A DNA stretch of 62,147 nucleotides. Origin: Schmidtea nova. Its lineage: Eukaryota. The DNA lies in assembly GCA_044892505.1 (NCBI GenBank), contig CM097883.1, forward strand, positions 205,965,854 to 206,028,000, written 5' to 3'. Positions 8,206 through 61,932 of this stretch are shown piece by piece (position 1 is the first letter of the stretch; each line of letters starts with the position of its first letter). A model generated the notes under the pieces. That model was not told the origin of the DNA. It was given only the letters and a program-made list of their open reading frames with translations, and did not search any database. The position numbers and the translations under genes are program-made.

Positions 8206-8399
8206 CATAATTATCTTTTTTCACCTTTGATCTTTTTTTATTATTATTATCAATAATTCTCATAATGACTATAGATCAAATTTTTTTTATAAACAATAAC
8301 ACAATATTATACACACTTGATAAAGGCTGTGCCGAAATATTGTGTTATTGTTTATAAAAAAAATTTGATCTATAGTCATTATGAGAATTATTGATAATA
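8206..8399. mobile_element. 194-bp palindromic mini-PLE (inverted tail + hammerhead + tail) inserted in pPolB
   Basis: 8223..8308 matches the tail at 1..90 and 8311..8399 matches 3885..3975. Flanked by the 14-bp direct repeat attatttagattat (8192-8205, 8400-8413). Confidence 0.85.
8311..8345 (+). ncRNA. Minimal hammerhead ribozyme motif in the mini-PLE
   Basis: Identical to 3885..3919. Confidence 0.68.
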
Positions 8400-8844
8400 A
8401 TTATTTAGATTATTTGTATTATTTAGATTGTTTGTATTATTTGTATTATTTGTATTATTTAGATTATTATTTAGATTATTATTATTTATAGTATTAATTA
8501 TAGGATTAATTTGGTTGTTGTTAATAAAATTAGGAAAAATTTGCTTAAATAAAATTTTCTTGGAAGGCTGAAACTGCGAAAGATGTCTACAGTGCCTATT
8601 AAAGAAATCAAAATATGGGGAAATTTCGATAAGTTTACAGGTGTGGCATAGGAGGTGGGTAACATTATTATATGTCAACGAGTAGTATTTTTCCATAATG
8701 ACATGGCAATCATTATGGAACCTACTGTTGCAAAAATTTTTGTAGGTTGAACCTGAATTTAAATAAATATTTAAATAAATTTTCAATATACATATAACAT
8801 TATAAATACAAAAATTATATCAAAAATCAATATTTCATCATATA

Positions 8845-9162
8845 CAGTAAATTGTTGCATATATAATTCTATTTCATAAATGTTTATTATCAAAAAATGA
8901 ATAAAGTAAATTGTTTCATATATATAATTCTATTTCATAAATGTTTATTATCAAAAAAAATGAATAAAGTAAATTGTTTCATATATATAATTCTATTTCA
9001 TAAATGTTTATTATCAATAAAATGGATAAAGTAAATTGGTTCATATATATAATTCTATTTCATAAATGTTTTTTATCAATAAAATGAATAAAGTAAATTG
9101 TTTCATATATATAATTCTATTTCATAAATGTTTATTATCAATAAAATGAATAAAGTAAATTG

Positions 9163-9222
<60 letters not shown>

Positions 9223-9525
9223 CTATTTCATAAATGTTTATTATCAATAAAATGGATAAAGAAAATTGGTTCATATATATAATTCTATTTCATAAATGTT
9301 TTTTATCAATAAAATGAATAAAGTAAATTGTTTCATATATATAATTCTATTTCATAAATGTTTATTATCAATAAATGGATAAAGTAAATTGTTTCATATA
9401 TATATATATATATAATTCTATTTCATAAATGTTTTTTATCAATAAAATGAATAAAGTAAATTGGTTCATATATATAATTCTATTTCATAAATGTTTTTTA
9501 TCAATAAAATGAATAAAGTAAATTG

Positions 9526-9565
<40 letters not shown>

Positions 9566-9740
9566 CTATTTCATAAATGTTTATTATCAATAAAATGGAT
9601 AAAGTAAATTGTTTCATATATATAATTCTATTACATAAATGTTTTTTATCAAAAAAAAAAACAAAATGAATATTTCATAATATAATTCTATTACATAAAT
9701 GTTTTTTATCACAAAAAAGTAAAATGAATATTTCATAATA
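8845..9740. repeat. ~62-bp AT-rich minisatellite, ~12 copies plus 2 degenerate, with variable internal (TA)n
   Basis: Unit aaagtaaattgtttcatatatataattctatttcataaatgtttattatcaataaaatgaat. Confidence 0.93.
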
Positions 9741-9895
9741 TAAATACTTTTAATATTATACTTTTAAATCATTTTGAAATGGTTTGAAAAACAATTACAA
9801 AATGATTTAAAAATAATATATTAAAAGTATTATTTAAATTAAAAACTCATGTTAAAAAAAAATAAATTCAATAATAAATTTTAACAAATTCTTAC

Positions 9896-10423
9896 ATTTG
9901 TTCTTCCCATAAATTGGGGCATCCAGATTAGCGACAACATTCGGGACACCAACATTCGGGACGTCATTCGGGACCTCATCGTCCATATCCACATTTCTCA
10001 TAATATTCATATTATCTGAAAAATTTATAATTAAATAATATTAATAAAATAAATAAATCAAATTACAATTAAATCGTCCCATTGACGAAAATACCCCCAT
10101 CCTTGGTGATGCTTCGGCATTGTTAATGTTGTTGTTGTTGTTATTGTTGTTGTTGCTATTATTATCTAAAGTAAAGTAATAATAATAATAATAATAATAA
10201 ATATTACCTAAAAATCGGATTCCATTGTGTTCTCCAACTCGTATTCTTGGAGCAACATTGAAAGATGTCGACTGGTCATCCTGTCGCATCATAACTGTTG
10301 CGAGATTTTGCGCAATATTCATTTCTGAAAGGAAATAATAATAAAATTCAAAATAAAAATAATAAATTTACCATTTACACCTCCTGCGAAATTTCTTTTC
10401 TTTGATATTCTAATATTATTCAT
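9896..10423 (-). CDS. Spliced multi-exon ORF of the Polinton (exons 10423-10372, 10324-10208, 10165-10067, 10015-9896); possibly the 5' exons of pPolB
   Basis: Three GT-AG phase-1 introns of 47, 42 and 51 bp give a continuous frame MNNIRISKKRNFAGGVN-EMNIAQ...DAPIYGKNK, followed by another GTAAGA donor at 9895. Confidence 0.6.
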
Positions 10424-10503
10424 CTTTGATTGAGTGATAATTGATAATTGATTTGAAAATTGATTTGAAAATTTATAAGTAAAAAGTGACGAAATAATGC
10501 AAG

Positions 10504-10711
10504 TATATACTATATAAAGATGAATTTTATTAACCGACCAATCAGAATCGAGATAGGATAGGCATATACATGCACACATACTGCACACTCAATATACTTT
10601 GTTTATGTGTTTGACGTCACGATACTTGCTTTGTATCGTGACAAAGACATGATATGACATGTTTTATCATGTGCTTATCACGCACTGATCACGCACTGGT
10701 CATGTCTTTGT
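10504..10711 (-). promoter_or_regulatory. Putative Pol II promoter: TATA-like (10504-10517), CCAAT box CGATTCTGATTGGT (10537-10550), CRE TGACGTCA (10612-10619) with nested inverted repeats
   Basis: Motifs lie upstream of the ATG at 10423; the same CCAAT block recurs at 15303 and 15358. Confidence 0.5.
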
Positions 10712-10803
10712 GATTAAAATAATAATATTCAATATTAATAATAAAAATAATAATATTTTATAAAAATAATAATAAAAAAAAATAATAAAATCACATAATA
10801 CAT

Positions 10804-11205
10804 TTATTGTTTTAAATAATCTACAACAGCAGACAAGCACCCTTTATAGGCACACATACAATGGTCTTTATAGGGACATGAAATGTTTTCAGGAACATAT
10901 TCAACTTCTTTATAATTATATTTAATTAATCTTAATTTCGGGAAATACTTCTTCAAAACATGTAACTTTTCATTATCGGTAACATAGAAAATAGCTCCTT
11001 TATCTGTAATATCATCCATTATACATTTTGGGCAAAAATAATCTTGTCCTTCAAACGATTCGATACGATCAGGCCAGAAAGATAAATCACTGTATATATA
11101 ATACTGGGGTGTGAAAATATTATTGACATTCATAATACATAATTCCTTAATTGTTGTACCACCCATTTCATTATAACCATAAAAATCGATAAAATAACAA
11201 GACAT
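10804..11205 (-). CDS. Polinton accessory protein, DEDD/DnaQ-like exonuclease-fold N terminus with Cys/His-rich C terminus (likely catalytically degenerate)
   Basis: FIDFYGY...IKELCI resembles the DxxG..IKEL pattern; CPxxxH..CAxxxC tail; a homolog occurs at 28887..29087. Confidence 0.55.
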   Translation of the reverse strand: MSCYFIDFYGYNEMGGTTIKELCIMNVNNIFTPQYYIYSDLSFWPDRIESFEGQDYFCPKCIMDDITDKGAIFYVTDNEKLHVLKKYFPKLRLIKYNYKEVEYVPENISCPYKDHCMCAYKGCLSAVVDYLKQ

Positions 11206-11237
11206 TTTTTCAAATAAAATTTATTAAAATAAATTGT

Positions 11238-11616
11238 TTATAACATTGATTTCAACCATGCAAGGCAATGTTCACCACAAGTGATTGTTAAGGGATGCTG
11301 ATACCGAATTCTATTATACACAATAGGTTTACCAATAGTTTGAAGTTTTCGAACAAGTAAATTCGGATAATAATATCCAAAGGGATCAAATACATGTATT
11401 CGATCTGGTTTCACATAAACTGCAATCCAATGTTCACCGCCCAACGTAGATGTCTGAGTATTTACAATGATGGCTTGATTCATTTTCAAATAAGGTATTT
11501 TATCTAGCGGAAATACTCCAATAAATTGATTTCCCAATAGTTTTTTACCTTGATGTAATACCTGAATAGAACTAATTAAAAATAAATAATTAATCAATTA
11601 AAAAATCTTACTCCAT
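11238..11616 (-). CDS. Adenain-like cysteine protease (5-nt first exon 11616-11612, 40-bp intron 11611-11572)
   Basis: IVNT...GEHW (His), FDPFG (Asp), YQH...TCGEHC (Gln, Cys). Splicing yields MDSIQVLHQG. Confidence 0.9.
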
Positions 11617-11719
11617 GATAATAATAAGTTATAATAACTATGGTCATTTATACTATTTGAGCAGAGCTTAAACTAATAATGTTTAAGCTTTGCTTAAACC
11701 AACAATGTTTGAGCAGAGC

Positions 11720-12230
11720 TCAAACCAATATTGTTCGATTGGCCGTAATTTGTACTTCATTTTCAAAAACTCCATATATAATTACATGAACAGGTTCATC
11801 AATGGGTTTTGAAAACTTTATATCGAGTCGTAAATTTCCGTTTTGAGGGATTTGGCCTTGATTCAAATCAAAATCGGGAGCGAGCACAAATGTAAAGAAT
11901 GGATATTTAGTTTTAAATTCATCCAGACTTATACCACAATTCAAGTTTTTATCCAAATATCCTAGATTTCTGACAACACTTTGCATATATGTGGCACTAA
12001 AATTATCATTTTCAAAATCTTGAGTATAAGTTTCTCGAAAATCAGTATTTTTCGATAACGTTAATGAAGTCACATTGAAATGTTTGAATGTAGATGCAGA
12101 TTCAGCATATGATCCATTATATTGATTTTCAGTTTGAAAAGCCACAAGAATGAAATTAGGCATTCTTCTATCTCCAAATATTTGCTCCTTGTAAAATGAC
12201 GATGCCCCTTTCCGATTTACTGTAAAATGG
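11720..12230 (-). pseudogene. Major capsid protein (double jelly-roll), C-terminal remnant
   Basis: MPNFILVAF..NGSY...FKHF...GISLDEF...LAPD...GNLRLDIKF...YGVFENEVQIT..R matches the Polinton MCP C-terminal pattern; the N-terminal ~60% is missing. Confidence 0.8.
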
Positions 12231-12386
12231 AAATGGATTATACACAAATGTAAAGTCTAAGAGAGAGACTTCCCAAATCCCGTCCAAATACATTGTATTT
12301 TGGAGATTGACCATGAAATTACTTGCTGTATTATCTGGATGTATATCTGGACAACTGTTGCTAGGTAGAATCATATAAAAATTCAT
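12225..12386 (-). pseudogene. Minor capsid (penton-like) protein, N-terminal remnant
   Basis: MNFYMILPSNS..HPDNTASNF...L...LDGIWEVSL is the typical Polinton minor capsid start. Its ATG overlaps the integrase stop (ATGA). Confidence 0.75.
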
Positions 12387-13429
12387 TTTACTAGGTTTTT
12401 TGATGATATCCATGATGGTTCTTTATATCCATGCCACTTGACATAGTATTGTTTATCCTTACCCACCATTTTAGATTTCAGGATTTTTTGAATTCTAAAT
12501 ATTGTCGGTGGAGGAATAACTTGTAATTCTTGTTCGTAGAATTTCCCGCTGATTATATTGTTATCAGAGTCACAAATAGTATACATGACAGGATTCTGCA
12601 CTGTGTTGACTTTCGATATTTGATATACCTCATCACTCCAATTATTTTCAAAATTTTTAATAAATGGCGATGCACTAATTTTGCTTATTCGAACATGATC
12701 ACCAATTTTATATTTTGGTTTCTTTATTTTCACTTCACTCAAAGTATTTTCAGTATCAACTACTTCGGCCGGTTTCCTACCATTTATACCCCGATGAGCA
12801 CTATGATTATAACTATGAATCAATTGAGGTAAAACATTAATCCAGGTTTTATTGCCTTTAAAAACAAAGTATTTTTTCAATCGATCACGCAAAGTTCGAT
12901 TAAATCTCTCGACATGAGCGGCTTTGAATTGCGAGAATACTGAATAATGATTTATTCCCTTGATAACTTCCTTGACTTTACTGTTGTAAAATTCCTTTCC
13001 TAAAAAATATTAAATATGTATAAATTAAAATTAAAATTTACCCAAATCGGTTTGTAAATTAGTTGGCCGATCCTTTTTCATCATTGTTTTGATAGCAATT
13101 GCCATGTCATTAGCTGATTTTGATTTTACTCCAATTGCTCGAGCAAATCTACTGTAAACATCAATACATGTTAAAATATACTTATACCCCTTGTTAATTT
13201 TGGAATACGGAATCATTTCCATCAAGTCCATTTGCCACAAATCATTGATTCTATATGTTTTATATGCTCGAGTTGGAAACCGTTTCAACATCGGTTTGTT
13301 TAGACTGTATGCAAGTTGCCCCGATAACCAACTTTGTGTCTGTTGTTTCGACTTCTGTGCTTTTTTCCTTAGCTTTTTGACTCCACCGAAACCGGCGTCG
13401 TCTTTTGGGTTCGTCAAGATCTTCTGCAT
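12383..13429 (-). CDS. Retroviral-like DDE integrase with C-terminal chromodomain, 334 aa after removing a 42-bp intron (13041-13000); intact
   Basis: WQMDL (D), QTDLG^KEF (D; the intron splits the Gly codon), VERFNRT (E); chromodomain IQKILK..YYVKWHGY..PSW. Exons of 388+617 nt are in frame. Confidence 0.92.
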
Positions 13430-13481
13430 TACAACAAGAAGATTTAAAGTTTAAATTTAAATTAGGTAATGATTGACCCAT
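13260..13481 (-). CDS. Small ORF overlapping the integrase 5' end in another frame; MG start, CC, basic patch
   Basis: MGQSLPNL...SSCC...KRRRRFRW; its ATG is 3 nt after the stop of the upstream gene. Confidence 0.35.
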   Translation of the reverse strand: MGQSLPNLNLNFKSSCCNAEDLDEPKRRRRFRWSQKAKEKSTEVETTDTKLVIGATCIQSKQTDVETVSNSSI

Positions 13482-13484
13482 TGT

Positions 13485-14070
13485 TTATGACCTTTGTCCC
13501 AATAAACCAGCACCTCCCAATAATGATAAAGCTAGTGGTAATAATGCGGTAATAAATCCTCCTTGTTGTTTATATATTATTTTGCGCATAAGTTTTCGAT
13601 TTTTTGTTTTTACTAGCGACAACAATGGTTTCTTATGCTTGTTCAAAACACGTCGATTAGATGGACTGAGATGCATTTTACCTCTCACTACTTTAATTAA
13701 AATAGCGAGTAAATCATCGATAACGTAATTAAATAAATCATCGATAACGTAATTAATCGATAACGTAACTAGGAAACGATTGAAGAATAGCCATTCTTCT
13801 AGCGGATGGGGCTTTAAGCAATGCATTAAAAAACGGAAAACTCCGATGATGTATTTGTTTAGCATTTGATTTCAAATTAATTGGAATTTGATTTTGTTTG
13901 GGAAAATTATCCATAATTAGTTTTTTCGATGGCGTATAACTTGTTTTTGAAACTGATTTTGAAACGGATTTCTTTGTCGATTTCTTTCTTCGACCTGCTT
14001 TCTTACCTATTTTCATTGATTTTCGAGCTTTTATCAATCGTTCAAACTTTACTCGAGATTTCATTAACAT
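13485..14070 (-). pseudogene. Basic Polinton core/cement-like protein with protease-site-like QQGG^F C terminus; frameshifted by a 40-bp tandem duplication (13729-13768)
   Basis: Removing the duplicated atcgataacgtaa block joins ...FPSYVID to DLLAILIK...KQQGGFITALLPLALSLLGG. Lys/Arg-rich. Confidence 0.65.
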
Positions 14071-14090
14071 TATTATTACTGTAAATCAAT

Positions 14091-14693
14091 TTAACTTTGT
14101 TTATAAACCATATCAGTTCTAACTCTTAAATCATCACTGCATTGTTGAGTAAAGTCCAGGAAAATATATCCATGAGGAGATTTTGTAGCATCTTGAAAGG
14201 CCTCCATTAAAAAGTTACGGTTAGAAGGATAAGCTTGTCTTGCCAGAAAATCAATAACTGTTGCATCTCTAGGATTTTTAAACACAACAAGATATTGAAC
14301 ATATAAATTACGAGTTCGATGACTACCGCCCTGATGAAATAAATTCTGAGTTATAAAAATAACAGTAACACCTTTATGTCTACTGATTTTCGTGAATAAG
14401 TTATTGAAATCCTTTTCTTTATTTGCTTCTTGATACAAGTCGTCAATTATAATCACATCACCTTGTTTTAATCTAGATGACCAGTTTTTATCGAAACCTT
14501 TTATGATTGTCATTTTTATTTTACAAAACTGATATTGAGTCATTCCACTTTCGTCGTCAGCACCCCTATGCCAATAAATATTATTAAATTTTGACTTGAA
14601 TAATTTCGATTGCAATAATTTACAAACAAATAAAGTTTTTTCACTCCCGCTCGGACTAACAATTTGAAACACTGCATCATTTCTTAATTCCAT
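14091..14693 (-). CDS. Polinton A32/FtsK-HerA packaging ATPase with damaged Walker A
   Basis: SPSGSEKT (from GPSGSGKT), IIIDDL, FTKISRH..VIFITQNLF, KNPRD, HGYIFLD. Confidence 0.9.
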   Translation of the reverse strand: MELRNDAVFQIVSPSGSEKTLFVCKLLQSKLFKSKFNNIYWHRGADDESGMTQYQFCKIKMTIIKGFDKNWSSRLKQGDVIIIDDLYQEANKEKDFNNLFTKISRHKGVTVIFITQNLFHQGGSHRTRNLYVQYLVVFKNPRDATVIDFLARQAYPSNRNFLMEAFQDATKSPHGYIFLDFTQQCSDDLRVRTDMVYKQS

Positions 14694-14787
14694 ATTTAAA
14701 AATTATATTTTCTTAATATTATTGTTTATATTTGTTTTAAATACCGGTTCTCAAAGTAATTGTTTCATTTAAAAATATTTTCAGTAA

Positions 14788-15275: not shown

Positions 15276-15302
15276 CTGCAATATCGATGCAGTAGAAATG
15301 CA

Positions 15303-17850: not shown

Positions 17851-17869
17851 TATATATATATATATATAT

Positions 17870-18750
17870 TGTGAATGTCCTATTTTATTGTTATTTCTAT
17901 ATTGTTATTCGTTTATGATGTTGTAATCGCCGTCATTGTTATGGACGGTGCCTTTGCGGTCACCGGGGACCCCCCTTTCATCGGTGAATGCTAATATGTA
18001 TTATTATTATTATTATTATTAATATTATTATTATTTAATTTAAAATTCAAATTTGGCTTGCTATAGGAAAAGCTATAGTAAGCCAAATTGAAAAATTAAA
18101 AAAAAATCGATCACATATATAAATTAATTTTATCTTCAAGAATTAAAGGAATATTTAATTAACTACCAAAAACAATAGAAAGTTTGAAACAAACAAAAAA
18201 AGAAAATCAAGAATAAAATTTCCTTACTAAGGAAATAAATCTAAAAGAATAGAACCTAAAGAAAATTTCAACAAGATAAGAATAAATCAAAGAGACGATT
18301 GAACTGAATAACCCTCTTCCAAAATTGATTTTCCAAACAAGTGATTATAGATACAGAAATATCCGAGGGATATCCGAGGATTACAGCTAGAAGTTTGCCA
18401 AAATCCCTTTCCTCCAAATACTTTAACAGATAAAAGACATTAAATCTGAGTTAGAGGATTGCCATTTCCTCCAAGTATTTCAATAAACAAGACATTTGAT
18501 ATCCCTCCAAAAGTTAAAGTAATTTTGTATAGTTAAGTTATTAAGAACTTTCTATTGTGATATTAATTTAATTTCATTATTTCGTTGTTTTATTGTTATT
18601 GCATACACTCTAGCACTACAAAGCATACACCCCGAGTGTCGGTACACAGTTAACGCCAGACTCTCTCGGGCTCTTACATTCTTCTAGAGCCACAAAACAG
18701 AAAATAACCTTAAACATACATACGTAACATAAATAGGAAAAAGAACGTAC

Positions 18751-18751
<1 letters not shown>
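17870..18751 (+). repeat. Solo LTR related to the adjacent Gypsy LTRs, inserted in (TA)n
   Basis: TGTGAATG...CA; shares the conserved hairpin blocks with 18820..19773. Confidence 0.8.
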
Positions 18752-18819
<68 letters not shown>

Positions 18820-19773
18820 TGTGAATGTCATATTTTATGGTTTAATTCATCTTACGATTATGGTTTTTCTCGTATTTTGTTGTAAGCGCCGTCATTGTTA
18901 TGGACGGCGCCTTTGTGGTCACCGGGGCCCCCCCCTTTTTCTTGTGAATGATAATATTTATTTTTATTATTATTATTATTATTATTTAAATTTGACTTTC
19001 AAATTTGGCTTGCTATAGCAAAAGATATAGTAAGCCAAATTGACAATTAAATTAACAATTAAATTAAAATCGATCAAAAAAAAATAAAGCTAATAGTTTA
19101 AAAACTGCCCAAATAATAAGAAAGCTCGAGTTGCAAATTCACCGGTTAAACAAACAAAAAAGAAAATTGTCAGATTCAAAACAATTGTTTTTTCAATTCT
19201 CCCTTTGCCAAATCTTAACAATTATCTTAAACCAAACAATTTAATACAAGAAAACGACAACAACAATCTTAAACCCATCTTGAAGAAGAACTATTGAAAA
19301 CGAAGTGCAGAAACTTCCCTTTGCCAAATCTTAACAATTATCTTAAACCCAACAATTTAATACAAGAAAACGACAACAACAATCTTAAACTCATCTTAAA
19401 GAAGCACTATTGAAAACGAGCTGCAGGAACTTCCTATTGCCAGATTTTAACAATTATCTTAAATCAAACCATTTAATACAAGTAACTTTCGTGGTTCTAA
19501 AGTTTTTCTTTTAGATACATTTTCAGTTAAATATAACTTGCATCATAGTTATTGTGTTAAGTTACTTATTTATTTGTTAGTGTTAATATTGTATCTAAAC
19601 AGTTCTTATTACGCACGCACTCACACCAAAAGGACATACGCATACACCCCGAGTGTCCTAACACAAATCGGTGACTCTCTCGGGCTCGTCAATAATTTCC
19701 TCTGGTACACAAAACTACATAATAAATAATATTTCCTTAACAAACATCGACAATCTAATTTATTTCCTTAACA
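18820..19773 (+). repeat. 5' LTR
   Basis: Direct repeat of 24525..25473; TG...CA; internal ~120-bp tandem repeats. Confidence 0.93.
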
Positions 19774-19964: not shown

Positions 19965-21157
19965 ATGGCAATGAACCCAATAAACCCAAACACTTCACAA
20001 ACACCCATGGACAACGAAAATGCACAATCCCAACACCAAAAATACAATTAATATTACAACCCCGAAAACACACACACCATAAACTTTGTAATTAACACAA
20101 AACCCAACTTACTAAACTACTTCACTGATGAAATTGGCACCCCACAAAAATGGCTAGAATTTGCCAAATTAACACTAACCCTTTCAGGTATAAAATCCAC
20201 AAAAACCTTATGCTCCAATATTATAGCCGCACTCCCCAGCAACAAACTAAATGAAAAATCCGATCAGATCGAAGACATTTTTAAGGATGACGACCCCTTT
20301 AACAAACTATGCAACATCCTGACGAACAAAAACAAAATAAACAGACGGCAAAAGCTTGAATCTTGCCTCAACAACACTCAATTAGGTGACAATAAACCCA
20401 CTGATTTTCTCAGGCAATTAAAACAAAAACTAGAATATTTGCAACCAAATATCACAAATTCGGGTTCAAATGAACTAGTGAAAGAATTTTTCATGCGACA
20501 ATGCCACCAGAAATCAGGAGGATTTCGGCAGCCAGCAACAACGCTGACGGTGAAACACTTGTCGACATAGCTGATAAAATCCACGAGGAAATTTATCCGA
20601 CTATATGCAGCACCCAAAACCACAACAAAAACAAAACCAACTACAATAACCCTCCATACAACAAAAACAACGAAACAAACGACAACATGAACAAACTATT
20701 AAACACCCTAATCGGCAAATTCGACGAAATAATCGTCGAAAACAAACAAATTAAAACAGAACTAGCCGAAATAAAAGAACGCTGTAATATACAGAATTTT
20801 ATATCAACACAATCATACGATAGTTACAACAGATACAACTACAACAGAGACCTACCATCAGACGGTCAAAACAGACAATGCTACAATCAACCCCCAGAAT
20901 GCAACAGACAAAACTACAGCCGCAATCAATCACCAAACAACAATTACAGAAACCGGTTGAACTCCCCAAATCGAAGCAACAATTACCGAAACAGAAGCCC
21001 AGAAAGAGATCCAAGAAATAATTATATAAACAAAAACCTGTACTATTTCCACAACAAATTCGGTGAAAAAGCATTTAAATGCACACAACCCTGCGAATCA
21101 ATAAAACAGAGCAGGGAAACCAATAAGGTCACCAATGATAGCACCCACATCAGGTGA
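19965..21157 (+). pseudogene. gag: gag (with a premature stop)
   Basis: LGDNKPTDFLRQL, FFMRQMPPEIR, degenerate (C)YFH.KFG..A.KC..PC knuckle. Confidence 0.8.
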
Positions 21158-24100
21158 CAAAAACAACACATTTTGGGTGCACAGCAATAGCATAGACTTT
21201 TTAATAGACACCGGCTCGGTGATTTCATTACTGCCCCATTTTATGTATAAAAGTGCCAACAAAACAGAAAAACCATTAACAGCAGCTAACGGCACAAACA
21301 TAAAAACTTTCGAGCAACAAACAATAAACTTAACCATAAATAAAAAGAACTACAACTGGACATTCACTATAGCTGAGGTCCAACAAGCGATAATAGGAGC
21401 AGACTTCCTAACAAATTACAACCTCTTAGTTGATTTTAAAAACAAGCAAATACTAGAAAATACTAACGCTACAACTCGACAACGCAACACGAGCAGCGGA
21501 CAAAGACCAAAGATAGACATCGGCGTCGTTACAACAAACATAAAAAACAAACCAAACCGGAATAAAAACATACCAGAAATCGACAAAATTCTGGAACGAT
21601 TCAAGGATTTAACGGAACCCGTCCAATTCAACGACAATTCTGAAAAAACAACCGAACACGCCATAATCACAAACGGAAATCCAGTGCACTCAAAAGTAAG
21701 ACCACTGGACCCCAAAAATATAGAAATCACAAAAAACATTTTCAGCGAACTGTTAGAAAATAACATTGTAAAACATTCCAACTCTGAATGGTCTTCAGCA
21801 TTGATGCTTAAACAAAAAGCAAATGGTGAATGGAGAGCCTGCGGCGATTACAGACTATTAAACAAAATTACAGAACCAGACAGCTACCCATTACCTATAA
21901 TTAAAGACATCATAAACAGATTAATCGGGGCAAAATAATTCTCAAAAATAGGTCTACAAAAAGCATACCACCAGACCCCAATTAGAAAAGAGGACGTCAA
22001 GAAGACAGCAATAACAACCCCAATCGGAATGTTCGAATACAACCGAATGCCTTTCGGTTTACGAAATGCGGCAGCAACATTCCAACGATTCATGGACCAA
22101 ACGATGAAAAACAACAAAAACACAATAGCTTACCTGGATGACATCCTAATATCAAGCCCAGACAAAACAACACATCTAAAATATGTAGAAACGGCGTTCG
22201 AAACACTGAACAAAGCAAAACTTAAAATAAACATACAAAAATGCGAATTCATGAGAAATGAAATAAATTTTCTGGAACACACACTAAACGACAAAGGAAC
22301 ACAGCTAATCGAAAACAAAATTAACAATATAAAAAACTACAAACTACCAACAACCACAAGAGAGTTGAGGAGATTTCTAGGAATGGTAAACTTCTACCAT
22401 TCGTACATCCCAAACTGCAGTAAATTACTAGCACCATTAAATGACATTACCACAACAAAGCGAAATGTCACAATAAACTGGACTCATCAAACAACCGAAG
22501 CATTCGAAAAAGCCAAAGAAAGTCTTTCAACGGCAACACTACTCGGATATCCTGATCCAGAAATAGAATACCAATTAACTACAGACTGCTCAGGTTTTGA
22601 AATGGGGGCAACAATTTTCCAGGAAAACAAATTCGGAAAACAACCACTAGGTTTCTTCTCTAAAAAGCTAAAGTCACACCAAACAAGATATTCGACTTTT
22701 GACAGAGAACTACTAGCAATACATGATGCAATCAACACTTTCAACATCTACTCGAAGGGCGAACTTTCAAAATATTCACCGACCACAAATCGCTAACAAA
22801 CGCAATTGAAATGAAAAACCCTTCGCCAAGACAGATCAGATAAATCAACTTCATTTCACAATTCAATTGTACAATAAATTATCTATCGGGAAAATCAAAC
22901 ATAGCAGCAGACGCCTTATCCAGAACCGAAAGTGACATAAATTCCTTATAATTCGGAGAAATGATTGATTTGGATCAAATCAAACCCAAATAAAACGAAA
23001 CAATAAGGAAACTGCCTACTAAACACAGTCTGAAACTCCAGGAACTTAACGGAGTATGGTACGATGTATCCAACGAAAGCAACAGACGAATTCTACTACC
23101 CAAAGAATTCCGCAAAAAATGCATCGAAAAGATCCACTGAATTAATCATCCGGGAAACAAAACAACTTTCGAATTTATTCACAACAATTATATATGGCCC
23201 GACATGAGGAAAGAGATAAAAAACTTTGTCAAAAGCTGCCATAATTGCCAAATAAGCAAACCGACAAAGAAAATTAAAACAGAAAAAGTAAACTTCCCAA
23301 GTAGTCAACCCTTCGAGGTGATTCACATAGACATAGTAGGACCGTTACCACCGAACAACGGGTACAACTACTTACTAACAATCATCGACAGAAAGACAAA
23401 CTGGTTTGAAATCGTCCCAATAAAAGAAATATCCGCTCAAAATATATGTAACAACATCGAACTAAATTGGATGGCTCGCTACGGACAACCCAAAATACTA
23501 ATAACAGATCAAGGGAGGCAATTTGAATCAGAACTATTCAGCGCCCTATGTAAAAAATATAAAATAAAACGGAATCGAACAACCGCTTACAACCCTCAAG
23601 CGAATGGAAAAGTCGAAAGACTGCATAGAACGCTTAAACAAAGCGAATGACAGAAATTGGTTGTCTGAACTACCGACAATATTGCTGGGACTAAGGAACA
23701 CACCAAACTCAATAGACATCGAAAGTCCAGCATACAAAGTGTTTGGCAAAGAATCAAACCTCCCAACAATTAAAAACAATACAACAGAAAACGCAAAAAC
23801 CAACAAACAACCAACCAACACAAACAACGAAAGAGTAGAAAAGAAATTAAAAGGAATCCCAAAAAAGAGAGCGAACTCTGAAATGGACGGAAAAGTAGTA
23901 CTAACGACAGACTACGTATTAATCAAAAAGCCCTTCACCAAAGGTTTCGAACCAAAATACGAAGGCCCATTCAAACTGATGGAAATTAACAAAAATGTGG
24001 CAACAATAATAAAAGACAACATCAAAACAAGAATAAATCTTAGAAGAATTAAACCATACCACAACAATCAAAACACTTCAAACAACCCCACAAAAGAAAA

Positions 24101-24248
24101 AGCCCCGACACAAACAAAAACACAAACAAAAACTCAAACAAAACATAAACACATCACATTCAACCCCAACAACTCGATAAAACTTTTCGACAAGGACACA
24201 ATAATCACACCCCTTTACAAAAAACGCTATAGCGAATGCCTTAAATAA
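21135..24248 (+). pseudogene. pol: pol (PR-RT-RNase H-IN), several stops and frameshifts
   Basis: FLIDTGS, CGDYRLLN, MPFGLRNA, YLDDIL, TTDCS, YSTFDRELLA, HIDIVGP, TDQGRQF, NGKVER, YEGPF. Confidence 0.93.
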
Positions 24249-24524: not shown

Positions 24525-25469
24525 TGTGAATGTCATATTTTATGGTTTAATTCATCTTACGATTATGGTTTTTCTCGTATGTTGTTGTAAGCGCCGTCAT
24601 TGTTATCGACGGCGCCTTTGCGGTCACCGGGTGCCCCCCTTTTTCTTGTGAATGATAATATTTATTTTTATTTTTATTATTATTATTTAAATTTGATTTT
24701 CAAATTTGGCTTGCTATAGCAAAAGATATAGTAAGCCAAATTGACAATTAAATTAACAATTAAATTAAAATCGATCAAAAAAAATAAAGCTAATAGTTTA
24801 AAAACTGCCCAAATAATAAGAAAGCTCGAATTGCAAATTCACCGGTTAAACAAACAAAAAAGAAAATTGTCAGATTCAAAACAATTGTTTTTTCAATTCT
24901 CCCTTTGCCAAATCTTAACAATTATCTTAAACCAAACAATTTAATACAAGAAAACGACAACAACAATCTTAAACCCTTCTTGAAGAAGAACTATTGAAAA
25001 CGAAGTGCAGAAACTTCCCTTTGCCAAATCTTAACAATTATCTTAAACCCAACAATTTAATACAAGAAAATGACAACAACAATCTTAAACTCATCTTAAA
25101 GAAGCACAATTGAAAACGAGCTGCAGGAACTTACTATTGCCAGATTTTAACAATTATCTTAAATCAAACAATTTAATACAAGTAACTTTTGTGGTTCTAA
25201 AGTTTTTCTTTTAGATACATTTTCAGTTAAATATAACTTGCATCATAGTTATTGTGTTAAGTTACTTATTTATTTGTTAGTGTTAATATTGTATCTAAAC
25301 AGTTCTTATTACGCACGCACTCACACCAAAAGGACATACGCATACACCCCGAGTGTCCTAACACAAATCGGTGACTCTCTCGGGCTCGTCAATAATTTCC
25401 TCTGGTACACAAAACTACATAATAAATAATATTTCCTTAACAAACATCAACAATCTAATTTATTTCCTT

Positions 25470-39300: not shown

Positions 39301-39470
39301 ATCATTAATATCTCTTATTTTCATCTTTGATCTGTTCCTTTCTATTTCATAAATTTTCATTTTTCATATAATTTTTTATTTATTTTATTTTAGGTAATTT
39401 AAAAAAATTTTAAAAAATATTTAAAGAAATTCACACTTGAAAAAGGCTGTGTCAAAAATTCATGTACTTT
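39301..39470. mobile_element. Old palindromic mini-PLE relic (inverted tail + degenerate hammerhead)
   Basis: cacacttgaaaaaggctgtgtcaaaaatt at 39432; 39301-39373 is an inverted tail (cagatcaaagatgaaaataa on minus). Confidence 0.55.
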
Positions 39471-41523: not shown

Positions 41524-41650
41524 AACACTTGAAAATGTTTGTCAAAAATTCATGTAACTTTTAAAAATTATTTTGATGTATAATCTTAATTATGAAAAAT
41601 TCTGAAATAGAAACGAAAAGATCAGAGGTGAAAATAAAATATGTTAATGA
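41524..41650 (+). mobile_element. Old PLE tail relic (degenerate hammerhead + tail)
   Basis: acacttgaaaatgtttgtcaaaaattcatgta...ttttgatgtataatc...aaaagatcagaggtgaaaataa. Confidence 0.5.
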
Positions 41651-55699: not shown

Positions 55700-56104
55700 T
55701 GCAATATTTCTTTATATTTTCAATTATCAAGGTAAATATAACGATGGAAAGACTGTAACGAAAAATCGTGTATTTTAAAAAAATGTTAATATATAAATAA
55801 ATTTTATATAATTTAAATATCTTATTAAAATATTATTTGTGTTGGTTAATGGGTTATTATAAACTGTTATTTCCACGGATTATGGGAACCCACAAAACAT
55901 CATGAAAATGTCAAATATTCCTCATTTGTGTATTTATTGTTACTCCTTGGTAATCTATGTTGGCAATGTACACAGTAATGTTAGAATTCAATGAGCAGGA
56001 GAGCTTCGTTGCCAAAACAACTCTTCATTAGATTCTATCTTTCGGGTTATTACTGTCGATAATTACTCTTTACTTCAAAGGTCCTTATTAATGGAATATA
56101 TATC

Positions 56105-57079
56105 TGTTCAGTGTTAGTTTTAGTAGTTTGTTTTTTATGTTTGCGAGTGTAGTAAGAAGATTGTAGATCCCGAGAGAGTCAGACGTTAGCAATGTGCCGA
56201 CACTCGGGGTGTGTGTTGTGTCGTGCGGGTACAGAGATAATAAAACAAATAAGAAATTAAACCGATAAAATGTATTAATAATCAACTAATAATTTAAAGG
56301 CTAACAATGAAAGTCTAACTTCGAATATCGGCTGTATTCAATTCTTTATTTTGTCGACCCGCTATTAGGGCTTGGATTTGGGAGTGGATCGGGACAAATT
56401 GAGATTGAGGTACGATAGTTGTGATATTATAATTTCAAATTATCAACTTTTTACTTTCCTAGTTCCTAAGGTAATTCTGATTGAGATTATATTGGGCTTT
56501 TTATTTTCCTAATTACTATGATGATTCTGACTGAGATTATATTGTGCCGAATTGTGATTGAGGCACGACAGTTGTGATAATATAATTTCTAATTATCAAC
56601 TTTTTATTTTCCTAATTACTACGATGATTCTGACTGAAATTATATTGGGCCAAATTGAGATTGAAGCCAAAATCGGGAATTAGGGATTGTTTCTTTAATT
56701 GTTGTTTCTTTTCGGTTTCCTATGTTCTATCCTAGTCTTCAGATTTTCTGGTTCTCGTTTTTACCAATTACTAAGGTTTCTTTTAATCGTTTTAGTTTTT
56801 CTAATTGTATCCTAGCTCTTTAATAGCTTTTTAATTTGTCATCGATTTTTTTTAATTTTCTTCGTTATATCCTTAGATATTTAATTTTGAATTTGATTTT
56901 TTAAATTAATTTAATTCTTAATAATAATTATAATAATAAAAAAAATTACATACACCAACAAAAAGGGGGGTCCACGGTGACCGCAAGGGCACCGTCCATA
57001 ACAATGACGGCGCTTACAACAACGTACTCGAATATCGTTAATCATAAAATAAATTAATCAATAAAATATGTCATTCACA
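56105..57079 (-). repeat. Solo LTR of the same Gypsy LTR family (third subfamily)
   Basis: Minus strand starts TGTGAATGACATATTTT; contains gcgccgtcattgttatggacggtgc and cccgagtgtc...gactctctcggg blocks. Confidence 0.8.
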
Positions 57080-59652
57080 GTCCTCTTAAATTTATGAACT
57101 CTTAACTTTCCGTAACATCGCTTTATGATATTTAATAAGCCTATCTATTCACAAAAATATCTAAATAAAACCCAGTCTATTTCTCCTGGTTCACCTTACA
57201 ATTACATCCCCTAATTATCTTTTACCTAGAAATTCTATGTAATTTAATATGACGATGGTTAAACTACTCAACCCGAGAAAATCGTACAATTACTATTTAT
57301 ACAAAAGAAAAGAACATACTTGTAACAATCGTTTCCCTTGATTCACTAAATACAATATCGATGATGAGTGATAGAGTTGTTCACAAATTTTTAAATGTGT
57401 ATCCACAAAAGTAATTGTTAAAAGTTTTTGGCTTAAAGTTTTGTTAAAATAATGATTTCCGGAATGCTGTTTATACTATTTTTGTGTAAATCCTACGTCT
57501 TTTGCTAATTTAATTTAAATATTTATAATTTAATTTATATTTATTTATTTTAATATTTAAATTATTTATTTTCATAAATAAATTATTTATTTATTTTCAG
57601 TTAATTTAGTTTTACAATTAATTTAATTTCTAAATATTTATTTTTAATTCTAATAAATTATGTGTGTGTCCCATATGGCGTCCTTTCGCATGCAATAATT
57701 GATTAAATTAAATACACTGCAACCGCACTTGGTATCCGTCAAAAATCAGAAAAAAGCTAAAAAAAAGGTTTAATAATAAAAATTTACATAAACTACACTT
57801 ACGGGTTCATAAACTTCACAGCATAACATAAAATCTTCTTTTTAGTGTAGGTCTCACTCAGTGTTTGTAAACGACCTAATAAGATCAGATCGATAATTCT
57901 TGTTTACAAAATAAATTTAGCTACGCGAGCTGACAATACGATAAACAAGTTACGTAGTAGTGTGACTTGGGGGTCTCACTTACACATATATAAGTAACTT
58001 ACCAGGAGTAATAAAACATAATATTCAACATTCAACTCCAAACGATAGGTAAGACAATATTTGTAATACATTCTCTTTTAAGTTTTATGATTATTGCTGT
58101 TTTCTTGAGGTATGCTTAATAATTTGTTTGTTGTGACGTACGTTGCTTGCTATATTCATCTTTGTTATTATAAAATTTTTAAACTATTTTCAAAAAATGG
58201 AAAAGTCACTAGAGAAGATATGCAAATGAATCAGCCGATTCGAGGAGAAAAAAAGAACTCCTGGAGGAGAATCAAACAATGTCACTTCTACTAAACAAAT
58301 TCATTCAATGATGCTGTTATTATTAGGTAACTTGGTTTGCTCCTATAAATGAGGGTAGCTCAGGAAAAACTTGTGGAAACCAAGAAATTATTAGGAGAGG
58401 GAACTATTAAGCGAAGGGCTCTTCAAATGGTTCTTCCTGACAAGGAAGTTGAGTTGGATCGATACTGTGTGGAATACCCCGTCGAAGAGTCATACAATAT
58501 ACCGAATGAAGGCACAAGCACTGTAAAATAAATGGGTCAGGAACAAACGTCCCAGGAAAGCTCGAATATTGGGATGAATCAATAAGTCTACTACATCCAC
58601 AAGTTGATCTGGATGCCAACTAAGCAAGTGACGACAGTCCAGTCTATTGGTGTATGAAATTGTACATACAAATTTTTTAATTTTCGTTTATTGATGTTCT
58701 GTGATTATCTTTTGTTATTATTAATCATTGTATCAAATTTAATGAATGATGTTATTTGTTGAATGAATATTATTAAAACGGATTTTTGAGAATGGGCCAT
58801 AACTTGATTAAAATAGCCGATGAAGTAAGAAAAAACCAAATCTCTAATGACAATATACGATTAATTCTCTCCGATATTAATTTTGCACGTAATAAATAAC
58901 TGTCGACTAATACTTTCAAACGATATAGTCAAAACTAAAACACATCATCACTGTCTCGGGTCAAAACAAGAATCTTGAATGAACAATAGAAAATTAAATC
59001 ATTATTGTTAAAGAAAGGGATCGAACATCGAAATGAGCGCATATCTTCTATCGATAGCTCTTGAACCCAAAGAAATTACTAGGTCAAATATAGTTTTTGG
59101 TAATAGCGCTCACATTTTGCGAGTATTCCGCCCAATAATAATATTACCAAGGTTGCTTGCGATAGTAACTACTGGTTAAACAATAGTTATATTACAAAAA
59201 AAATATATGTTGCTATGGTACCCACGATATGTAATATATATTATTTTTTATATATTTAAATACAAATGTAATTATGTATATCACAAAAAAATTATTAAAA
59301 CTCCTTTAATTTTTAGGTAAATTGAGGATTATTCATATTTCGCTATGCATTTTTAGAAAAAAATATTTTTTTTAATTACTAAAGATATTTTTACTGCTAA
59401 ATTGCATAGTTCAGAAGACGAAATAAAAAAAATAAAAAAATGCAAAATAAGTAGAAAACATTAATGTAATTTAAATTTTCACACTTATTTTAAGAACTTT
59501 ACAGTTTCATTTAGTAATTTTTTAAACATTAATAATTTTGTTTAAATATTGTAATTGTTGATGTTTTATATAAAAATTTTGAATTGTGTTTTTTCTTTTA
59601 ATTTTTCATTGATGAATTGTCCTCGTAGTTTATTTATATTTACTTATGGTGA

Positions 59653-59708
59653 GCTCTGTGGAAGGCCGCGGCTCTGAGGTAAGGCCGCGGCTCTGAGGTA
59701 AGGCCGCG
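59653..59708. repeat. GC-rich 19-bp tandem repeat (~3 copies)
   Basis: aaggccgcggctctgaggt units. Confidence 0.85.
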
Positions 59709-59775
59709 AGGTTTAGCTTTTGCTAAAGTTTTTTATACTTGAAGTACGTTATTTAACCGTTTTGTAGCAGGTTAT

Positions 59776-59867
<92 letters not shown>

Positions 59868-61706
59868 GAAACGTATATTTACGCTCCTAGTTACGTAAAC
59901 GTTAAAATGATAAAAAGTTCATTCAAAAATATTTGCGGTTGATATGACTTATCTATTCTCTTGATTATACTTCTTATTAAAAATTAAATATCTCAAATAT
60001 TATAGTTTATAAAGAGGAAGAAACAAAAAATATTTTTAATTGCATTCTTCCACTATCTAAAAAGTTTTAGATCAAAATTGACCTCTCCGTTCTTCTAGTG
60101 TCGCTCCTAACGTCTCTAAAGAATGTAGAAAATAATATTAATATACCACGGATGTACATTATATTTCTGAGAAAACACGTGCTGAAAACAATCTCTATAA
60201 TTCACAACATGGAAAACAAGCAACCAATCAAAATTGCGCATGACAAATTCATTTTCAGAATAAATATTAAAACAAAAAAAAACAAATATTCTAATCGATA
60301 CGCCATATTTAATATTTTTTTATTGAAAACTTCTCATAAGTCAAACACAAATTTATTGGCCTACTAAAATTAAAATTAATGTAAACCAAAATAAAAATGG
60401 CAAATATTTAATTCGTCAATTGACTCACCGAAATAATAGATTTATAAAAAGTTTTAATTCAAAACATTATTTGTTTGAATACGAGATATTTTTTGTTGAA
60501 AACAAGTGCGATATATTTGCTTAATCCGTTGGCAATTAAAATGTCAAAATGCAAAATTATATCAACTCAAGTAGAAATGTTTTTCAGATTTGTTTGAAAA
60601 AAAATCCCTGAAAATAAAATTTTAACTGCTGCTGATATTGCTGCTGCTGTCAACGATGATGAGGCTGATGAGGACTATGACAATGAAAATAATGAAAATA
60701 ACAACAATTTTATGATTTTTTAAAACATTTATTTTAATAAACATGCTTCGAAACAAATCGTTTAGTGTGTAATTGTTTATTTAAATAAATTTCAAAAATT
60801 TTATTACTTACAATTTGTAATCGACATTGAATCTTGTACACTTTGCTTCGTGATAAACGAATAGTTTCGATTTCTGTAAATATTTACAAATCAACAAGTC
60901 TTTTTCTAGTGCATTTCATGCTAGACTTTAAAATTATTTTTTTGTCAGTAATCTAAATTTATCTTTTTGATATTGTTCTAGTCTCGGAGTTTTATTATCT
61001 ATTAAACAAATAGCTCTGTAAAATAAAAATCACATTTTATTATTGGATTCGATAAAAACACTTTACATAATTTTTTTCTCAATATCACCATTGTTGATAA
61101 TAATATATAGCGAATGGAAAAATCGTAAAAAGAAAATATAAGCATCTTAATAAAAGAGTTTGAAATTTTGCTAAGCTTTTGCAAATGAAATTGATGAATA
61201 AATTAAAACAAAAAAAAAGAAACTTTACATGTATATATGAAAAATAATTTCATCATGATCTAGAGTTTCTCTCGAGATAGATTAAAAGTCTTTAAGTGTT
61301 TTCTAAGAGTAACTTCGTAAGAAAAAAGTTATTCTTCAAACGGTCACTGATTAGACCATTATCTGATAGTTTTTGCTTGGGGTCTGAGGTTTTTCTTTTT
61401 CGCGTATTGTTTAAATTTGACGTATACATCTGTGTTCATTTGTAAGTTTGATGAGTATGAATAGATCAGGATGTATTTAATTTGCATTTTAAGGCTGTTT
61501 GATAATTCTGAATGTATGTCAATACTAAGAATATGCGTGTGCATTGGGTGTGCACTTTCTGTTTAGAACAACGCGCAATCAATAGTAACTTTTGTAGCAT
61601 TTAATAAAATCCTTATCCATTTTTTTGTTTAAATATAAAACAATATTTTTAAGTAATTTTTTTTTATAAAATTTTGATTATTTTCTGATAAATTTACAAT
61701 TTTATT

Positions 61707-61932
61707 TATATCAACAATTTCCATAAATGTATGACTAGATCAAAAACGTTTTTTTTAAAGTAATCAATATTTCAGAACATCCTTTTTCAACTTCGCTTTA
61801 TCAAATACACACTTGATAAAGACTTGGCCAAAATATTGTGTACTTTTAAAAAATAACTTTTATCTATAATCATAACATTATGGAAATTATTGATATATAT
61901 AAAAAGAGATAAAAGGGAAACGATAATTATGA
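61707..61932. mobile_element. Diverged palindromic mini-PLE with hammerhead-like motifs on both strands
   Basis: Plus: acacacttgataaagacttggccaaaatattgtgt + tail. Minus (61790-61765): ttgaaaaaggatgttctgaaatattg + inverted tail. Confidence 0.7.

Follow-up and report, generated by a model that had tools for sequence, protein, structure and literature searches.

Short solo and inverted pLTR copies of a Penelope-like element in Schmidtea nova

A stretch of 62,147 nucleotides from Schmidtea nova (hereafter the window) opens with a 4-kb palindromic Penelope-like element (PLE), and holds five much shorter loci related to one end of it. The question raised by these loci is whether they represent a mobile family in its own right, or by-products of their large relative. 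An earlier note on this DNA had described four of them as a hammerhead-bearing, mostly palindromic family, arising either as a retrozyme-like RNA element or by extreme truncation and fold-back. I argue here that they are probably solo and inverted pseudo-LTRs (pLTRs) of an endonuclease-bearing (EN+) Penelope family, generated independently at each insertion by priming at either of two sites, on one or both target strands, and dead on arrival.

The parent element is organized as follows:

1–2030, minus strand: long arm, with a 5'-truncated EN+ Penelope-like ORF, the 3' UTR, the pLTR and, truncated where the window begins, the first part of the tail
2031–2046, plus strand: junction filler of reiterated TTAAGAA units, templated by the start of the right arm
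2047–3987, plus strand: shorter, tail-less arm, with the pLTR from 3881 and an (AAT)n microsatellite at its end

A 605-aa frame without stops (213–2030) in the long arm encodes an RT, a Cys-rich linker and, C-terminally, a GIY-YIG region, the single-ORF arrangement of PLE-type RT and C-terminal endonuclease that defines EN+ PLEs. A Pfam search of the protein identified RVT_1, and no match to GIY-YIG at E ≤ 1; it is 43% identical to P0007 over 588 colinear amino acids, spanning the region of P0007 that Pfam does assign to GIY-YIG. Because the Cys-rich linker precedes the endonuclease, the sequence suggests a Neptune/Nematis rather than a Poseidon affinity. The shorter arm contains an intact minimal hammerhead (U3 at 3891, predicted cut 3915/3916).

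The youngest of the short loci is a mini-palindrome, flanked by a direct repeat:

8192–8205, plus strand: left copy of the direct repeat, a probable target-site duplication of 12–14 nt
8206–8308, minus strand: tail-bearing arm, starting at hammerhead A14 and devoid of a catalytic core
8309–8399, plus strand: tail-less arm, starting 2 nt inside the common 5' boundary described below
8400–8413, plus strand: right copy of the direct repeat, 12–14 nt, equal to 8192–8205

The direct repeat sits in a 9-mer array, and its length is therefore ambiguous. The palindromic arms (8240–8308 and 8336–8404) are each 69 nt long, with 99% complementarity. Its tailed arm reads an ATG and about 20 codons, and the tail-less arm includes an intact minimal type I hammerhead at 8313–8345 (predicted cut 8341/8342), with a U3-A8 core, an extra A, a 3-bp helix II, a palindromic AUAU helix III and U17. 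The 39-nt tail (8206–8244) is found only on the left arm and the 27-nt ribozyme core only on the right arm, so that neither can be a simple copy of the other. Both arms possess an A/T run 4 nt shorter than that of either arm of the large copy. The earlier note had regarded such variants as private to this palindrome, and as a sign that it was copied intramolecularly from its own template. They are indeed common to both arms, but they recur in other contigs (see below); since they are family polymorphisms, and since each arm holds unique sequence, intramolecular copying is not implied.

A descriptor scan of the window identified three intact minimal hammerheads (109 minus, 3891 plus and 8317 plus), only the last being in a short copy. 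The description as hammerhead-bearing thus applies to one of five short loci, and in a transcript of that copy helix III, the cut site and the 3' strand of helix I are predicted to be locked in a 69-bp hairpin (−89.4 kcal/mol), while the opposite strand has no hammerhead core. G12 is lost at 39427, 41519 and 61803, and the minus arm at 61790 lacks a matching helix I. CpG-methylation decay was rejected as the cause of the G12 losses, the CpG observed/expected ratio being ∼1.0. The minimal motif does lie within the pLTR, and its predicted fold includes helices I and II, but the fold energy of the isolated ribozyme or arms is no better than that of shuffles and is given no weight here. Of four matches in an Rfam search, none was to a hammerhead family (E ≤ 1), which is what a minimal motif would lead one to expect. 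Exact-pattern ribozyme scans of metagenome and viral contigs gave no match, and a related-locus scan of metagenomes gave 434 pattern matches, none of them confirmed.

The remaining four loci are more diverged:

39301–39372, minus strand: old subfamily, distal pLTR half and tail, no hammerhead
39427–39480, plus strand: old subfamily, proximal pLTR half with a dead hammerhead, starting at the common 5' boundary
41519–41651, plus strand: old subfamily, complete solo pLTR and tail, 133 nt, dead hammerhead
55732–55805 (end approximate), plus strand: additional single-arm relic, with a 15-nt deletion through the hammerhead core
61701–61793, minus strand: tail-less arm of an old palindrome, homologous to the young pLTR
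61794–61802, plus strand: junction of this palindrome, with the first few nucleotides of its right arm repeated in inverted orientation
61803–61932, plus strand: tail-bearing arm, complete pLTR of 130 nt, starting exactly at the common 5' boundary

I compared these to the young pLTR (reference 3881–3975) under two scorings, using 440 other window tiles and 200 dinucleotide shuffles as controls. The hammerhead arm at 39427, the 41519–41651 copy and both arms of 61701–61932 exceed all controls (0/440 tiles, 0/200 shuffles). For the piece at 39301 the result is marginal when compared to the young tail (6–46 of 200 shuffles reach its score), but clear when compared to the 41519 copy (57/72 identical, 0/500 shuffles). 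The 41519 copy and both 39-kb pieces form one subfamily, in which 39427 and 41519 have the same dead hammerhead core. The single-arm copy at 55732, absent from the earlier note, has its first nucleotide 16 nt upstream of the common 5' boundary and scores 53.5 against a null maximum of 37 (613 tiles), with a weak nhmmer match (E 0.014). The proposed derivation from the Penelope 3' end is thereby borne out, with the four loci of that note being real relatives of the 3' end of the PLE at 1–3987, and 55732 a fifth relic.

The palindromic architecture is less general than had been claimed, as it is found in two of the five short loci (8206 and 61701). At 61701–61932 the arms are 69/94 identical (0/500 shuffles), and an inner 9-bp palindrome (61796–61804 and 61813–61821) lies at the junction. 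Its right arm resembles the young family (75/89) more than it resembles the left arm, the distances of the two arms to that family differing at only p = 0.06. The pieces at 39301–39470 do point tail-out, but are non-overlapping pLTR halves with no alignment column in common, and their self-complementarity is at chance level (130/500 shuffles). No decayed PLE ORF was found between 39480 and 41519 by tblastn or blastn, so that this stretch is captured or unrelated DNA rather than an element remnant. I found no clean target duplication around 39301–41651, nor at the other old copies. An inverted segmental duplication of 39301 and 41651 with their flanks was also considered, and rejected as flank similarity is that of chance (109 and 409 of 500 shuffles).

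All three palindromes in the window, including that of 4 kb, are tail-out and combine a tailed with a tail-less arm; the ends without a tail lie at nearly one position, and no two of the junctions are alike. PLEs are described as forming inverted 5'-truncated copies with a one-sided tail of 30–40 bp (PMC8557442), and the window copies correspond to such pLTRs in their homology to the PLE 3' repeat, their 39-nt one-sided tail and their tail-out inversion. Three tailed copies, from two subfamilies, retain an ATG followed by the frame M-x8/9-R-S-[KE]-[VM]-K, as would be expected if the pLTR plus tail overlaps the ORF start. The putative ORF start (MRIIDNNN...) shows no obvious match by eye in any of the N-termini of the 8 homologues compared, out of 65. 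In the account of Adineta PLEs, which occur with inverted and solo pLTRs, the pLTR spans the first 12–22 codons (PMC3846280).

Four public sequencing runs (X1, X2, X4 and X5) were aligned to the element; X3, which duplicates the sample of X2, and X6–X9, with small shares, were left out. The runs may stem from other individuals or species, or from the window's own sample. Neither the end of the tail nor the N-terminal part of the ORF was included in the reference, such that tandem units, or joins to that part, would show as loose ends, and figures for X5 leave out rows at repeats. At least 698 contigs depart from the element at positions 116–120, the 5' edge of the hammerhead, into nearly unrelated flanks (at least 457 in X1, 38 in X2, 201 in X4 and 2 in X5). 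Flank consensus agreement there is 0.41–0.52 (X1, X2 and X4), slightly above the 0.38–0.44 of random window flanks. This boundary lies 32–36 nt upstream of the self-cleavage site, and the hammerhead arm starts at it or within 2 nt in four of the five short window loci. From bin 139–207 to bin 70–138 the contig depth sum, which is not a copy number, rises 5.3-, 17-, 3.9- and 13-fold in the four runs. Three opposite-strand joints are present among the best 15 of 182, each in a single contig of one run, at unrelated ORF positions and unshared. Short reads under-sample perfect hairpins. In the four runs, 11, 1, 2 and 1 contigs show a 4-nt loss at position 59, and at position 69 the A>T change is the majority letter of each run; taken together, these two separately listed variants would, in my reading, correspond to the 8206 allele.

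A splice acceptor (the AG before 3881) was considered as a cause of the boundary, given that an intron of Drosophila Penelope is described as ending at helix I. It is disfavoured: the A is replaced in ∼41% (X1) and ∼45% (X2) of the depth, the best 15 of 182 joints include none that skips from 119/120, and the loose ends have no common leader. The earlier note had proposed that shared breakpoints would imply a self-propagating unit. A common 5' breakpoint does exist, but it is accounted for, without such a unit, by run-off where the RNA has a fixed 5' end, and breakpoint sharing in this form is therefore not a decisive test.

In the scheme proposed here, transcription of the autonomous element would begin at one fixed point, the 5' edge of the pLTR (window 3881), where the boundary is observed. 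Its RT/GIY-YIG protein would nick AT-rich, ATT-containing DNA, and reverse transcription would start inside the RNA at either of two sites ∼39 nt apart, near the ORF start, leading to the two 3' end classes observed, with or without the 39-nt tail. Such a mechanism has been shown in vitro for PAc, a Poseidon element of Anolis carolinensis, with two internal RT start sites reported on either side of the tail, cutting and extension of both strands, a preference for ATT and hammerhead cleavage that is dispensable (PMC11167929). The window copies likewise have two 3' ends bracketing the tail, ATT-rich targets and ends off the hammerhead cut; the two-strand extension observed there in vitro is here deduced from genomic footprints. 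Priming in the 5' pLTR of the transcript would run off at the RNA end, yielding a 90–135-nt cDNA with a fixed boundary, i.e., a solo pLTR, and priming at the 3' pLTR would yield longer, randomly truncated copies. When both target strands are extended, the cDNAs would be joined head to head into a tail-out palindrome in which one arm has a tail and the other none, with a total size of ∼200 bp to 4 kb and a junction unique to each insertion. Two-strand priming would be required by 8206, and optional for the 4-kb and 61701 palindromes. The hammerhead would be carried along as part of the pLTR, set neither end, and then decay. The truncation and inversion origin envisaged earlier is thus supported in outline.

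The same products could arise, again with no self-propagation, by fold-back self-priming of a single cDNA or antisense template, followed by endonucleolytic trimming of one tail. In the 4-kb and 61701 palindromes the tailed arm contains all of the other arm, the junctions show short templated repeats or an inner palindrome that fit this route equally well, and the 4-kb arms have only two internal differences in 1941 nt; PMC3846280 also reads junction palindromes as self-priming. I nevertheless consider it unlikely, as at 8206 it is the arm less extended at its 5' end that has the tail, and a target-primed cDNA that folds back would yield both arms only with an extra off-target hairpin step, and as the 61701 right arm is closer to the young family than to its partner, albeit with the limited significance given above. 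Quite improbable, in my view, is that the ∼130-nt start-to-tail unit is a SINE-like non-autonomous element, with an internal promoter and both RT start sites, transcribed anew and mobilised in trans by the PLE protein. The sharp boundary across subfamilies, the 3.9–17-fold depth excess over the adjacent bin and the dead core shared by 39427 and 41519, as if from a master copy, would suit such a unit, as would the internal promoter reported in the Drosophila Penelope pLTR (PMC2377424) and the report that pLTRs suffice in cis for trans-mobilisation in Adineta (PMC3846280). However, run-off accounts for the boundary, a common polymorphism is all that sets the young short copy apart from the ORF-bearing one, and the ORF-start reading frame is kept in old copies. 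Furthermore, the minimal anole template is reported to need 172 nt of ORF, with one RT start at 111–118 (PMC11167929), which suggests a requirement for sequence past the inserted end. If real, this unit would be a short PLE-dependent element, several-fold more numerous than its parent and mobilised without using the hammerhead, would be distinct from retrozymes, and would yield mini-palindromes whenever both target strands are primed.

Non-LTR retrozymes are likewise small, non-coding, type I hammerhead relatives of PLE pLTRs, described as head-to-tail tandems of 150–450-bp units with canonical hammerheads leading to circular RNA (PMC7229834; bioRxiv 10.64898/2026.07.22.740005), and animal retrozymes are said to leave dispersed monomers (bioRxiv 10.64898/2026.07.22.740005). 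With an intact hammerhead at 8313–8345, the short copies could then be monomers or palindromes of hammerhead-processed circular RNA with tandem masters elsewhere in the genome, but I regard this as very improbable. Same-strand tandem hammerheads are absent from the window, its copies being single or head-to-head, and these continue unpermuted past the cut site (84/85), where no pile of loose ends is seen among 21 of 1639 loose-end rows. The motif is minimal, sequestered at 8206 and not intact in the other four loci. Retrozyme membership in the window is therefore largely refuted, with tandem arrangement, cleavage-set ends and a canonical active hammerhead all lacking. I give practically no credence to a DNA-transposon MITE, although 8206 has inverted arms set between direct repeats: these arms correspond to the 3' end of an RT-encoding element, only one side bears a tail and the ends are thus asymmetric, three of five loci are not palindromes, and the junctions differ. 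Symmetric TIRs and a fixed size are lacking, as is a clean fixed target duplication at the old copies, and the PLE homology refutes this assignment. The earlier remark that a palindromic copy would be mistaken for a MITE seems fair.

Solo and inverted pLTR formation by an EN+ PLE, the reading I favour, places these copies among well-described structures. The accounts of Adineta vaga Pen2/Pen3 and D. virilis Penelope (PMC3846280, PMC8557442, PMC2377424) include head-to-head 5'-truncated inversions with a one-sided tail, a pLTR over the ORF start, variable target duplications, junction palindromes and solo pLTRs; inverted, direct and direct pLTRs around unrelated DNA resemble 39301–41651. In contrast to these, insertions in the window are wholly reduced to pLTR-only palindromes of ∼200 bp, and a subfamily-spanning 5' boundary at the hammerhead edge is seen in hundreds of contigs, a feature for which the available text of those reports gives no figure. 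The Schistosoma Cercyon hammerhead (PMC4209133) is the same minimal type I motif, with the U3-A8 variant, an extra nucleotide at 9/10.1, G10.1-C11.1, a 4-bp helix I and palindromic 15.2–16.2, and occurs mostly as single dispersed copies from truncated PLEs; opposite-strand pairs 100–700 bp apart are already known there. Helix II is 3 bp here, compared to 7–8 bp in Schistosoma, and the young family has a U at position 17. The PLE literature thus already includes inverted and solo pLTRs, tails and pairs of hammerheads on opposite strands.

The short elements therefore represent known Penelope anatomy in miniature, and annotators should mask such copies as the ends of PLEs rather than as MITEs or retrozymes. 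The unique sequences of the two 8206 arms are the footprint expected under two-strand priming, as reported for the anole element in vitro (PMC11167929). A young, high-copy family whose 5' boundary is sharp and whose 3' ends fall into two classes provides a genomic read-out of inverted-pLTR formation, a step that the cited papers, in their available text, call unresolved.

The window is eukaryotic, AT-rich (29% GC) and repeat-rich, and starts with a tail-out palindrome of 4 kb (inverted, head to head). Its arms show 2 internal differences, and both encode a 5'-truncated reverse transcriptase (RT) ORF. The RT protein has 65 relatives at E<=1e-20, and its alignment to protein P0007 (43% over 588 amino acids) spans the Pfam GIY-YIG region of the latter. 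This protein marks the 4-kb parent as an endonuclease-bearing Penelope-like element (PLE), and its Cys-rich linker ahead of the endonuclease suggests the Neptune/Nematis type, going by the description in PMC8557442. The copies in the window are:

13-1953 and 2047-3987, arms of the 4-kb tail-out palindrome
8206-8399, young short copy
39301(-) and 39427(+), old pieces
41519-41651(+), old copy
55732, relic
61701-61932, old copy

The earlier note had derived four short loci from the Penelope tail, and all four are indeed homologous to the element's final ~130 nt. Scored in two ways against 3881-3975, with window tiles and dinucleotide shuffles as controls, the 39427 arm, the 41519 copy and both 61.7-kb arms outscore 440/440 other window tiles and 200/200 shuffles. 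For the 39301 piece the match to the young tail is borderline, but that to the 41519 copy is clear (57/72, 0/500 shuffles). These loci had been described as mostly palindromic; 8206-8399 and 61701-61932 are palindromes (0/500 shuffles each). Neither 39301-39480, previously read as a palindrome over 39301-39470, nor the 41519 copy is one, their self-complementarity being reached by 130/500 and 229/500 shuffles; at 39 kb the two pieces cover separate halves of the pseudo-LTR (pLTR), without overlap, and are oriented tail-out. A fifth locus at 55732, which had gone unnoticed, is a single-arm relic, and with the non-palindromic 39-kb and 41519 loci this brings the palindromes to two of the five short loci. 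The original observation is real, partly mis-described, and largely accounted for by known Penelope biology.

The motif is a minimal type I hammerhead (U3-A8 core, an extra A before helix II, G10.1-C11.1), in which a palindromic AUAU replaces helix III and helix I has 4 bp. The available part of PMC4209133 lists these features for metazoan PLEs, attributes dispersed hammerhead motifs to truncated PLEs, describes opposite-strand pairs 100-700 bp apart, and states that minimal hammerheads are thought to require a same-strand partner for cleavage. A descriptor built from core motifs finds three intact minimal hammerheads, 109(-), 3891(+) and 8317(+), and none of these motifs has a same-strand partner in the window. 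Calling the short copies hammerhead-bearing is correct for 8317(+), the intact one among them, and not for the 39427, 41519 and 61803 arms, where G12 is lost. In the 8206 transcript a 69-bp hairpin locks the cut site and the 3' strand of helix I, and the opposite strand of this palindrome lacks the ribozyme core. The old hammerheads show covariation: helix II at 61.78 kb (61755-61790(-)) is GGA/UCU versus GGC/GCC in the young family, and the helix III palindrome at 39.4 (39427-39470) and 41.5 kb is AAUU with C17, versus AUAU.

In all three palindromes one arm carries a ~39-nt extension and the other stops at about a common upstream point. The extension is the PLE tail, described in the available portions of PMC8557442, PMC3846280 and PMC2377424 as 30-40 bp, often one-ended, and found alongside an inverted 5'-truncated copy. 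Three tailed copies keep an ATG as well as the frame M-x8/9-R-S-[KE]-[VM]-K, which would fit a pLTR plus tail that extends over the ORF start, though the N-termini of 8 of the 65 homologues give no obvious match by eye; the Adineta pLTR includes 12-22 ORF codons (PMC3846280, in part). Inverted and solo pLTRs are an architecture already described, and the window's short copies work like them and show their testable features; the literature searched, most subscription papers lying outside it, yielded no quantified fixed 5' boundary for solo pLTRs.

Variants shared by the two 8206 arms had been taken to indicate intramolecular copying. Both occur in contigs from public sequencing runs: the 4-nt loss at position 59 in 11, 1, 2 and 1 contigs of four runs, and 69 A>T as the majority letter in all four, which together, in my combination of two separately listed rows, make up the 8206 allele. 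A single donor transcript or subfamily suffices, and intramolecular copying does not follow. The left arm, which begins at A14, has the tail, whereas the 27-nt ribozyme core is on the right arm, which is tail-less; since each holds sequence missing from the other, neither is a plain copy of its partner. The three palindrome junctions have nothing in common. At 2031-2046, the junction of the 4-kb palindrome, TTAAGAA is reiterated three times, templated from the right-arm start, with a TT/AA end overlap. This looks like repeated realignment in synthesis, in which either the PLE RT added repeats much as telomerase does or polymerase theta joined the ends. The 61701 junction has a 9-bp inner palindrome. 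Owing to these respective features, both junctions fit fold-back as well as end-joining.

The PLE ORF is present in nine public runs, with at least half its words in five. I mapped contigs from four of the nine (X1, X2, X4 and X5, from two studies, among which may be the sample of the window itself or other species) onto window 1-2046, a reference without the tail end and the N-terminal part of the ORF, with rows dropped at repeats. Summed depth, which is not copy number, tapers off in the direction of the ORF 5' end, as is usual with truncation, and on entering the pLTR bin it jumps 5.3x, 17x, 3.9x and 13x. In 21 of 1639 loose-end rows, 457 (X1), 38 (X2), 201 (X4) and 2 (X5) contigs depart from the element at positions 116-120 (window 3880-3884), and no pile occurs at the cut site, 84/85. 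Past 116-120, consensus agreement is 0.41-0.52 (X1, X2, X4), near the 0.38-0.44 computed for unrelated flanks; at 81-86, where divergence is subfamily-specific, it is 0.60-0.69 and the motif is readable. The loose ends at 81-86 belong to further subfamilies, whose sequence 3' of the ribozyme differs. Four of the five short copies in the window begin at the 116-120 boundary. Opposite-strand joints number three in the 15 best-supported of 182, each single-contig, single-run and inside the ORF, and no pLTR fold-back junction is among these 15; if the remaining 167, each weaker, were all of this kind, the 698 plain ends would still outnumber them. Short reads under-sample hairpins. The family reaches 0.86-0.93 of words in runs whose labels name two different organisms and a soil metagenome, at very unequal apparent abundance; descent, horizontal transfer or labelling are candidate causes.

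The short elements are probably solo and inverted pLTRs, formed by run-off at a fixed 5' end and two-strand priming. On the simplest account the PLE RNA would have a fixed 5' end at 3881, most likely a transcription start; a TATA-like hexamer lies at -29, which is a weak cue in DNA this rich in A and T. A splice site as the source of this boundary is disfavoured, because the AG is polymorphic and no leader is common to the loose ends. RT starting within the 5' pLTR of the transcript, at one or the other of two sites, would run off after 90-135 nt, leaving a solo pLTR, while starts in the 3' pLTR would give randomly truncated copies. Palindromes of any size could arise where both target strands are extended and the products are joined head to head. 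For the anole PLE, the available text of PMC11167929 reports that the tail falls between two internal RT start sites, that both target strands are cut, with ATT preferred, and then extended, and that hammerhead cleavage is not required. Both young insertions in the window lie within ATT/AAT-rich repeats, and 8206 is flanked by a direct repeat of 12-14 nt.

Formation of the palindromes by fold-back, which two junctions would allow, is unlikely. Under either route the copies are not self-propagating, which I consider highly probable. A SINE-like unit that propagates itself, which could share the fixed boundary, is doubtful. The earlier note had also offered a retrozyme-like RNA element. Retrozymes are defined by tandem hammerhead units giving circles (PMC7229834; bioRxiv 10.64898/2026.07.22.740005, both in part), and with three of the defining features tested and absent here, this is very improbable despite the intact ribozyme at 8317(+). 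A MITE, for all the inverted arms, is barely conceivable.

The 39301(-)/39427(+)/41519(+) trio is of one subfamily, surrounds 2 kb of non-PLE DNA and ends in a tailed copy, resembling the inverted, direct, direct layout of Adineta captures (PMC3846280, in part). PLE-mediated capture of host DNA at 39301-41651 is only possible, as no clean target duplication surrounds it.

The window also has other features. The 8206 copy sits in an Asn-rich 9-mer array inside a broken Polinton/adintovirus-like element (~4100-14700; protein-primed PolB pieces, adenovirus-type protease, rve integrase, chromodomain, A32-like ATPase), and its left-arm ATG is in frame with the flanking minus-strand frame 7679-8275. 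The strand that carries the PolB frames also has, just downstream of them, a match to the Histone 3' UTR stem-loop at 4329-4374(-) (Rfam RF00032; 31.1 bits versus a gathering score of 34, E 5.8e-5). A 62-bp tandem satellite with embedded (TA)n (8843-9773) is followed by a 66-nt inverted repeat (9720-9854). A second repeat family with an internal hairpin (17861-19376, 24525-25076, 56935-57079) is inverted at 56.9 kb and partly forms direct repeats, probably LTRs (99% identical over 300 nt), around Gypsy-like ORFs (20052-24248). At 26602-27577, 63-nt inverted repeats (89%), 850 nt apart, flank a short gag-like ORF (26531-26860).

The sharp 5' boundary and the asymmetric 8206 palindrome are testable footprints of the integration mechanism.
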